Notes under the pieces: generated by a model
The model's database searches: none
What the model was told of the DNA's origin: nothing
Seen by the model: the letters and a program-made list of their open reading frames with translations, nothing else
Made by a program: the position numbers and the translations under genes
NCBI RefSeq assembly: GCF_003334765.1
Contig: NZ_QOWT01000002.1
Origin: Escherichia coli
GTDB taxonomy: Bacteria; Pseudomonadota; Gammaproteobacteria; Enterobacterales; Enterobacteriaceae
Strand: one strand, 5' to 3'
Length of the DNA stretch: 64,000 bases
Shown here: positions 9,121-9,323 of the stretch, one piece after another
Layout: each line of letters begins with the position of its first letter
How positions within the stretch are numbered: position 1 is the first letter of the stretch

Positions 9121-9323
9121 TGCCGGATGCGGCGTAAACGCCTTATCCGGCCTACGGCTCGGTTTGTAGGCCTGATAAGACGCGCCAGCGTCGCATCAGG
9201 CTCCGGGTGCCGGATGCAGCGTGAACGCCTTATCCGGCCTACGGCTCGGATTTGTAGGCCTGATAAGACGCGCCAGCGTCGCATCAGGCACAGGATGCGG
9301 CGTAAAATGCCTTATCCGGCATT
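9121..9323. repeat. BIME cluster: two tandem ~88-bp units plus a partial third
   Basis: tgccggatgcggcgtaaacgccttatccggcctacggctcggtttgtaggcctgataagacgcgccagcgtcgcatcaggc (9121..9201) is repeated with a few changes at 9209..9289, followed by a partial copy; lies between nrdA and nrdB. Confidence 0.85.

Follow-up and report, generated by a model that had tools for sequence, protein, structure and literature searches.

The two subunits of class Ia ribonucleotide reductase are encoded by the neighboring genes nrdA and nrdB, and in the Escherichia coli DNA analyzed here (a window of 64,000 nucleotides) a tandem repeat lies between them. This raises the question of what the repeat is, how it varies among strains, and whether it affects the two genes that it separates. 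Ribonucleotide reductase sets dNTP supply, and shifts in NrdA or NrdB can affect replication and mutation rate. The reading that we favor, at a probability of about 0.8, is that the repeat is the known BIME-2 named REP164a-e, that it gains and loses units through its own repeats, and that it most likely tunes the upstream gene post-transcriptionally. We note that the element and its general mode of action have already been described and involve no new kind of biology. What our analysis adds is an allele census at one locus across 5,426 genomes, including the precise junctions of two deletions, and the finding that nearly a third of E. coli carry an unrelated element, BoxC, at the same site.

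The spacer between nrdA and nrdB is 233 nt long and is identical, without any difference, to the spacer of E. coli K-12 MG1655. Tandem Repeats Finder reported a single array there, at 9121–9289, with a period of 87, 1.9 copies, 96% matches, and a score of 315, and a repeat finder gave two direct-repeat families at a spacing of 87–88 nt. These results bear out an earlier note, made from the sequence alone, which had described a tandemly duplicated unit of about 88 bp between the two genes. The coordinates it gave held for the first copy (9121–9201) and required correction for the second, which starts at 9208, rather than 9209, and spans 82 nt, rather than 81. Pairwise alignment of 9121–9201 with 9208–9289 gave 79 identical columns out of 82, the differences being two substitutions and a 1-nt indel located in a linker. 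The partial third copy that the note had proposed is also present, as two shorter direct-repeat families (D3 and D4) have a third copy, at 9293–9306 and 9305–9320, repeating parts of the first REP.

The genes around the repeat are complete and co-directional. Full-length NCBIfam equivalog matches were found for nrdA, nrdB, and the next gene after nrdB, yfaE. A plus-strand scan found no terminator-like site anywhere in 8800–9600 and no promoter-like site within the spacer. None of the five hairpins described below is followed by a T run when the sequence is read, and the spacer does not contain an intrinsic (Rho-independent) terminator, defined as a G+C-rich hairpin followed by a T run on the transcribed strand. 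Because the repeat lies inside an operon and its spacer lacks a promoter- or terminator-like site in that scan, it is presumably part of the nrdAB mRNA.

Each repeated unit proved to combine two distinct palindromes, a Y-type REP and an inverted Z2-type REP, so that the whole cluster reads Y(+), Z2(−), Y(+), Z2(−), and degenerate Y(+) (Table 1). The Y pattern, GCCGGATGCGGCGTAAACGCCTTATCCGGCCTAC, had three matches in the window and the Z2 pattern, GCCTGATGCGACGCTGGCGCGTCTTATCAGGCCTAC, had two, compared with zero expected for either from shuffles of the window, which excludes chance as the source of the patterns. Another exact copy of the Y-type REP was seen away from the operon, at 2329–2362 on the minus strand, just downstream of a minus-strand open reading frame (2385–6131) that corresponds to yfaL in MG1655.

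Table 1. Features of the nrdA–nrdB spacer and its flanking genes (positions in the window; hairpin energies are predicted)
Feature	Position	Strand	Evidence
nrdA, class Ia ribonucleotide reductase alpha subunit	6827–9112	+	NCBIfam NF006578, 1644 bits, residues 1–761 of 761
Gap TATTGAGAT, 9 nt, nrdA stop to first paired base of first REP hairpin	9113–9121	+	Sequence, hairpin fold
REP a, Y-type, CTAC at 3' end	9122–9155	+	Exact pattern match; inverted repeat I8; hairpin −21.3 kcal/mol
Linker GGCTCGGTTT, 10 nt, between CTAC and GTAG ends	9156–9165		Sequence
REP b, Z2-type, GTAG at 9166–9169	9166–9201	−	Exact match; inverted repeat I9; hairpin −22.8 kcal/mol
Linker TCCGGGT, 7 nt, on the opposite REP side, connecting unit 1 to unit 2	9202–9208		Sequence
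REP c, second Y-type, two mismatches relative to REP a	9209–9242	+	Pattern match; hairpin −16.8 kcal/mol
Linker GGCTCGGATTT, 11 nt	9243–9253		Sequence
REP d, second Z2-type, same sequence as REP b	9254–9289	−	Exact match; hairpin −21.9 kcal/mol
REP e, degenerate Y lacking 5' GCC and 3' CTAC	9293–9320	+	D3, D4, inverted repeat I7; hairpin −11.8 kcal/mol
nrdB Shine-Dalgarno AGGA, 7 nt ahead of ATG	9335–9338	+	Sequence; predicted mostly unpaired in all alleles
nrdB, class Ia ribonucleotide reductase beta subunit	9346–10476	+	NCBIfam NF006576, 808 bits, residues 1–376 of 376; MG1655 annotation

The arms of the REPs are 79%–86% complementary (inverted repeats I8–I11), and in mRNA sense the individual hairpins were predicted to have energies from −11.8 to −22.8 kcal/mol. 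Pairing begins at 9122, which leaves 9 nt after the nrdA stop codon (TGA, 9110–9112). Alternative pairings were also predicted. A Y-type REP and the adjacent Z2-type REP can pair together instead, forming one long hairpin of −47.6 kcal/mol, and pairing between the 3' arm of REP e and the 5' arm of REP a can close the whole cluster. The predicted fold of the full spacer has an energy of −118 kcal/mol, with a z-score of −5.5 relative to shuffles.

These features identify the repeat as the BIME-2 of the K-12 nrdAB-yfaE operon, REP164a-e, an element that is already known and ordinary for E. coli. REPs between nrdA and nrdB were noted as early as 1984, both when the operon was sequenced and in the first description of REPs. 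The palindromes are imperfect, about 35 nt long, extragenic, and have the REP (PU) stem GCC(G/T)GAT...ATC(C/A)GGC with GTAG or CTAC at one end. They are dispersed, as a 551-nt query over the spacer matched a median of at least 33 places per genome in 5,426 genomes. Ton-Hoang et al. (PMC3333891) define BIME-2 as z2 and y REPs that are inverted relative to each other, have short linkers, and are repeated in tandem to an extent that differs among strains. The label BIME, already given in the earlier note, is apt by this definition: Y and inverted Z2 REPs alternate, in 1.9 tandem copies here and with 1, 3, 5, or 7 REPs elsewhere. The linkers are short, and at 10, 11, and 7 nt they cannot accommodate an IHF site, which, within a long L linker, marks BIME-1. 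The name REP164a-e comes from a table in PMC10100675 (2023), which places it adjoining nrdA; the RefSeq feature table of MG1655 contains no REP features. We regard the two as the same element, with the spacer identical to that of MG1655 and five REPs matching "a-e."

The closest described relative is REP325, the source of naRNA1–6 between yjdM and yjdN, which has the same Y/Z2 tandem building blocks and short linkers and likewise lies inside an operon between two co-directional genes. REP325 consists of six 77-bp units, whereas the nrdA–nrdB locus has two units and a partial one with a period of 87–88 nt. The only Rfam family that matched the repeat was naRNA4 (RF02564), at 9169–9239 on the minus strand, with 76.4 bits against a gathering score of 59.5. 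On the plus strand, in mRNA sense, the same model reached 41.4 and 34.3 bits. The orientation relative to transcription is thus opposite to that of REP325, with the above-threshold match antisense to the nrdAB mRNA, and the linker that aligns with the Y–Z2 linker of the naRNA4/REP325 model ("l" in REP325) has 7 nt here compared with 13 nt in the model. Since naRNA4 is itself one Y-linker-Z2 unit of REP325, another BIME-2, the match reflects family resemblance between BIME-2 units. With the Rfam threshold exceeded on the antisense strand alone, and with 6 nt missing from the linker relative to the model, we rejected annotation of the repeat as an naRNA4 gene. In a separate observation, the MG1655 annotation places yoaM (b4779), a gene of 11 codons, at 9312–9347 on the minus strand, where it overlaps the degenerate REP e and the nrdB start codon. 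This annotation implies that antisense expression extends to some degree into the BIME from its nrdB end, on the strand where the naRNA4 model exceeds its threshold.

Copy number at this locus differs among E. coli strains, as the earlier note had expected. The 551-nt query matched all 5,426 complete E. coli genomes, and the spacers of representatives were read from an evenly spaced sample. This cross-strain comparison revealed REP alleles with one, three, four, five, or seven REPs, while 31% of genomes had no REP. REP alleles, counted as those covering at least 80% of the K-12 query, were carried by 3,708 of the 5,426 genomes (68.3%), and about 34 genomes had neither a REP allele nor the 88-nt allele described below. 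In two evenly spaced samples pooled (n = 89), which give database rather than population frequencies, the K-12 type of 233 nt with five REPs made up about 36% of spacers, the 88-nt allele (no REP, a BoxC element) 30%, and a 145-nt allele with three REPs 19%. Less common were a 226-nt allele of O157:H7, with five REPs and a different middle junction, and a 189-nt allele with four REPs of other subtypes (about 6% each). The remaining three alleles accounted for about 1% each: the 241-nt spacer of BL21, a 65-nt spacer with one hybrid REP, and a 46-nt spacer with no REP. The longest REP allele, of 321 nt with seven REPs, was found in a single assembly, that of strain 99-3165. Matched by a synthetic three-unit query in this one genome, it contains three full Y-Z2 units and a partial one, with an exact extra copy of 9202–9289. 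Strain N96, which had drawn attention as a possible insertion by its low coverage, was rejected as such and has an ordinary 145-nt allele with nearby substitutions.

Several of these alleles are related by precise steps. In silico removal of 9202–9289 (88 nt) from the K-12 spacer yielded exactly the 145-nt allele, and removal of 9139–9306 (168 nt) yielded exactly the 65-nt allele. Both junctions fall inside direct repeats of the element itself, one being an identical stretch of 39 nt with Z2 in it and the other the 14-nt GGATGCGGCGTAAA. Because the deletion junctions lie exactly in direct repeats, units were probably gained and lost by recombination or replication slippage between them. The BL21 allele is the K-12 type with an 8-bp tandem duplication, CTACGGCT, that begins at the CTAC end of REP c and extends into the 11-nt linker. 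K-12, O157:H7, and E. albertii have five REPs each, but the junction types TCCGGGT and ACAG are arranged differently among them, which suggests more than one, independent duplication or conversion event. The first hairpin and the 9-nt gap are common to every allele of the Y/Z2 series. In the 189-nt allele, the gap is also 9 nt long but differs in one base, and it leads to a different REP.

In other strains, the REPs were completely replaced by another repeat. A query with the 88-nt allele gave an exact count of 1,684 of 5,426 genomes (31.0%), at one place per genome. This spacer, found for example in strain L725, reads CCCTCTCCC-CTTGC-GGGAGAGGG-TTA-GGGTGAGGG and fits the BoxC/PIT/TMECO type A intrastrand-triplex motif CCCTCTCCC-N5-GGGAGAGGG-TTA-GGGTGAGGG, an assignment that draws on the consensus and Table 1 given by Holder et al. 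2015 (PMC4666352). BoxC is unrelated to REPs in sequence and occupies exactly the same spacer as an alternative allele, so the nrdA–nrdB locus is dimorphic between two unrelated families of dispersed repeats, REP and BoxC. The BoxC element occurred at a median of 15 places per genome, and its motif was not found in the 64,000-nt window. Published studies have found no regulatory role for BoxC/PIT/TMECO (PMC4666352). The predicted hairpin in the RNA of the BoxC allele begins about 29 nt past the nrdA stop codon, compared with 9 nt for the REP alleles. The 46-nt allele, seen in strain BS-04 and the shortest found in E. coli, appears to be what a deletion left of the BoxC allele, and its RNA had no significant predicted structure (z = +0.5).

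The spacer could plausibly affect gene expression through its RNA structure. Folding predictions indicate that the spacer RNA forms a row of stable hairpins from 9 nt past the nrdA stop codon. The nrdAB operon is said to have served as the model in the 2015 work of Liang and colleagues on REPs of this kind. That paper (Liang, Rudd and Deutscher 2015) is the source cited for the nrdAB REP transcript in PMC12306157, which states that REPs no more than 15 nt from a stop codon stall ribosomes and names nrdAB as a previously reported case. The hairpin after nrdA, with its 9-nt gap, is within this 15-nt limit and thus resembles the stop-proximal REPs of Liang et al. 2015, for which nrdAB itself is cited. 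In PMC12306157, stalling, mRNA cleavage, and trans-translation that lower the amount of upstream protein are attributed to earlier reports on nrdAB. By this route, ribosomes stalled at termination by the first hairpin would yield less NrdA from each mRNA. The BoxC allele, with its hairpin at about 29 nt, should lie outside this stop-proximal class.

Additional effects may arise from the row of hairpins as a whole. REP hairpins are described as exonuclease barriers and attenuators (PMC3333891 is among the sources), and a 2026 preprint reports that REP325 in yjdMN stabilizes the upstream mRNA and that expression of the downstream gene is reduced about 8- to 10-fold, partly in a Rho-dependent manner. 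According to the same preprint, tandem gene pairs with an intervening REP have higher ratios of upstream to downstream expression. By analogy with REP325, the hairpins after nrdA may block 3'-to-5' exonucleases and so stabilize the nrdA part of the mRNA, and they may partly attenuate read-through into nrdB. Overall, post-transcriptional tuning of the upstream gene is the most likely function of the element.

Copy number itself appears to be of less consequence. The earlier note had suggested that the number of copies may modulate the nrdA:nrdB expression ratio through mRNA structure. An effect through mRNA structure is plausible, resting on the literature, with nrdAB as a reported case (PMC12306157), and on inference; a role for copy number is the less likely part of the suggestion. 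Predicted base-pair probabilities gave an unpaired probability of 0.50–0.67 from the nrdB Shine-Dalgarno to the ATG in all eight alleles tested, and no change in accessibility of the nrdB ribosome-binding site with copy number was predicted among these eight. With predicted accessibility unchanged from allele to allele, the most likely targets of any effect are NrdA output, mRNA decay, or read-through, rather than nrdB initiation. Taken with the first hairpin and gap common to the Y/Z2 series, and with the REP at the same 9-nt distance in the 189-nt allele, these predictions make it unlikely that copy number acts through nrdB initiation or through the stalling step, and it could matter only for the strength of the barrier or attenuator. 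On the same grounds, the presence or absence of REPs probably matters more than two versus three units. REP alleles compared with BoxC or 46-nt alleles are thus the sharper natural contrast, and these strains provide ready-made variants for gauging how important REPs are in the nrdAB operon.

Spacers of other Enterobacterales contained a range of repeats at the same position. A scan for NrdB in species-representative genomes gave 80 Enterobacterales loci, and the nrdA stop codon was located in 79 of them. Across these 79 species, spacer length ranged from 12 nt, in Photorhabdus and Xenorhabdus, to 322 nt. E. albertii has a five-REP BIME-2 in a spacer of 240 nt. REP pairs particular to each, with GTAG/CTAC ends, occur in Citrobacter, Klebsiella, Pluralibacter, and others, and Pseudocitrobacter, Phytobacter, and Raoultella have BoxC-like blocks. 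Separately, the 51-nt spacer of Kosakonia cowanii contains a G+C-rich hairpin followed by seven T, which resembles an intrinsic terminator between nrdA and nrdB.

Predicted helices close to the nrdA stop codon were more common in these spacers than in shuffled sequences. Among the 70 species with spacers of at least 25 nt, related to one another and so not independent, 66 had a helix starting within 15 nt of the stop, compared with 47.7 ± 3.0 (maximum 54) in mononucleotide shuffles, counting the first helix of at least five pairs in the minimum-energy fold. We regard this predicted excess as suggestive only, because the species are related and the repeats may favor positions of this kind; insertion right behind a stop codon may simply be a preference of palindromic repeats.

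Whether the repeat has a selected function at this locus can be argued from the same data in more than one way. It is possible, although we consider it doubtful, that the repeat is selfish or neutral DNA: REPs, spread by a REP-associated transposase and recombination, would have settled in a tolerant spacer, and copy-number differences would reflect drift. The element is dispensable, given the complete replacement of REPs by the unrelated BoxC in nearly a third of E. coli, the 46-nt allele without significant structure, and the 12-nt spacers of Photorhabdus and Xenorhabdus, all of which count against the tuning of the upstream gene that we favor. The presence of different repeat families at the site in different genera and the general copy-number variability of BIME-2 loci (PMC3333891) point in the same direction. 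Two observations argue for more than neutrality, namely the reported influence on translation of REPs close to a stop codon, for which nrdAB is a cited case (PMC12306157), and the stop-proximal helix in 66 of 70 Enterobacterales, compared with about 48 in shuffles. We note that a selfish origin and altered expression can coexist, so that this account is compatible with post-transcriptional tuning. Going further than tuning alone, the natural allelic series (BoxC, 46 nt, and one, three, four, five, or seven REPs) might set a lineage-specific NrdA output or NrdA:NrdB ratio, with the stop-proximal helix kept by selection rather than by insertion preference, a proposal that we find rather unlikely. 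If it were true, about 69% of strains, with a hairpin at 9 nt, would contrast mainly with the roughly 31% whose structure starts at about 29 nt, and the frequency of the helix across Enterobacterales, from whichever repeat family, would reflect selection at that position.

The remaining explanations place the function outside the structure of the nrdAB mRNA. It is improbable that the element acts mainly as DNA, either by offering gyrase a site to bind and cleave or as a topological insulator that relieves supercoiling from transcription of the operon. Gyrase binding and cleavage at BIME-2, and REPs as supercoiling insulators, are cited in PMC12306157 and PMC3333891, and the Y/Z2 composition that defines BIME-2 is present between nrdA and nrdB. 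However, this is a general property of BIME-2 with nothing specific to this locus, and 31% of strains lack the element. We give very little credence to the repeat as a source of naRNA4-like nucleoid-associated small RNAs acting with HU protein: the Rfam score exceeds its threshold and naRNAs are Y-linker-Z2 units of REP325, but the match above threshold runs antisense to the nrdAB mRNA, scores in the sense orientation stay below the threshold, and the linker is shorter than in the model. In addition, the nucleoid role is disputed, as the 2026 preprint found no measurable nucleoid compaction by REP325 and naRNA4. Finally, we rejected the repeat as coding sequence, which has next to no probability. 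The list of open reading frames includes a plus-strand frame that is open over 9115–10476, from a TTG at 9115 into nrdB (453 aa), and could be read as an N-terminal extension of NrdB. Against this, the ATG at 9346 begins a full-length match to the NrdB profile, RefSeq starts the protein at that ATG in every strain examined, the Shine-Dalgarno lies at a spacing of 7 nt from it, and allele lengths of 145, 226, 233, 241, 88, and 46 nt differ by non-multiples of three. As a minor observation elsewhere in the window, a match to the nuoG RNA (Rfam RF01748) was found at 62135–62177 on the minus strand, with 50.3 bits against a gathering score of 33.
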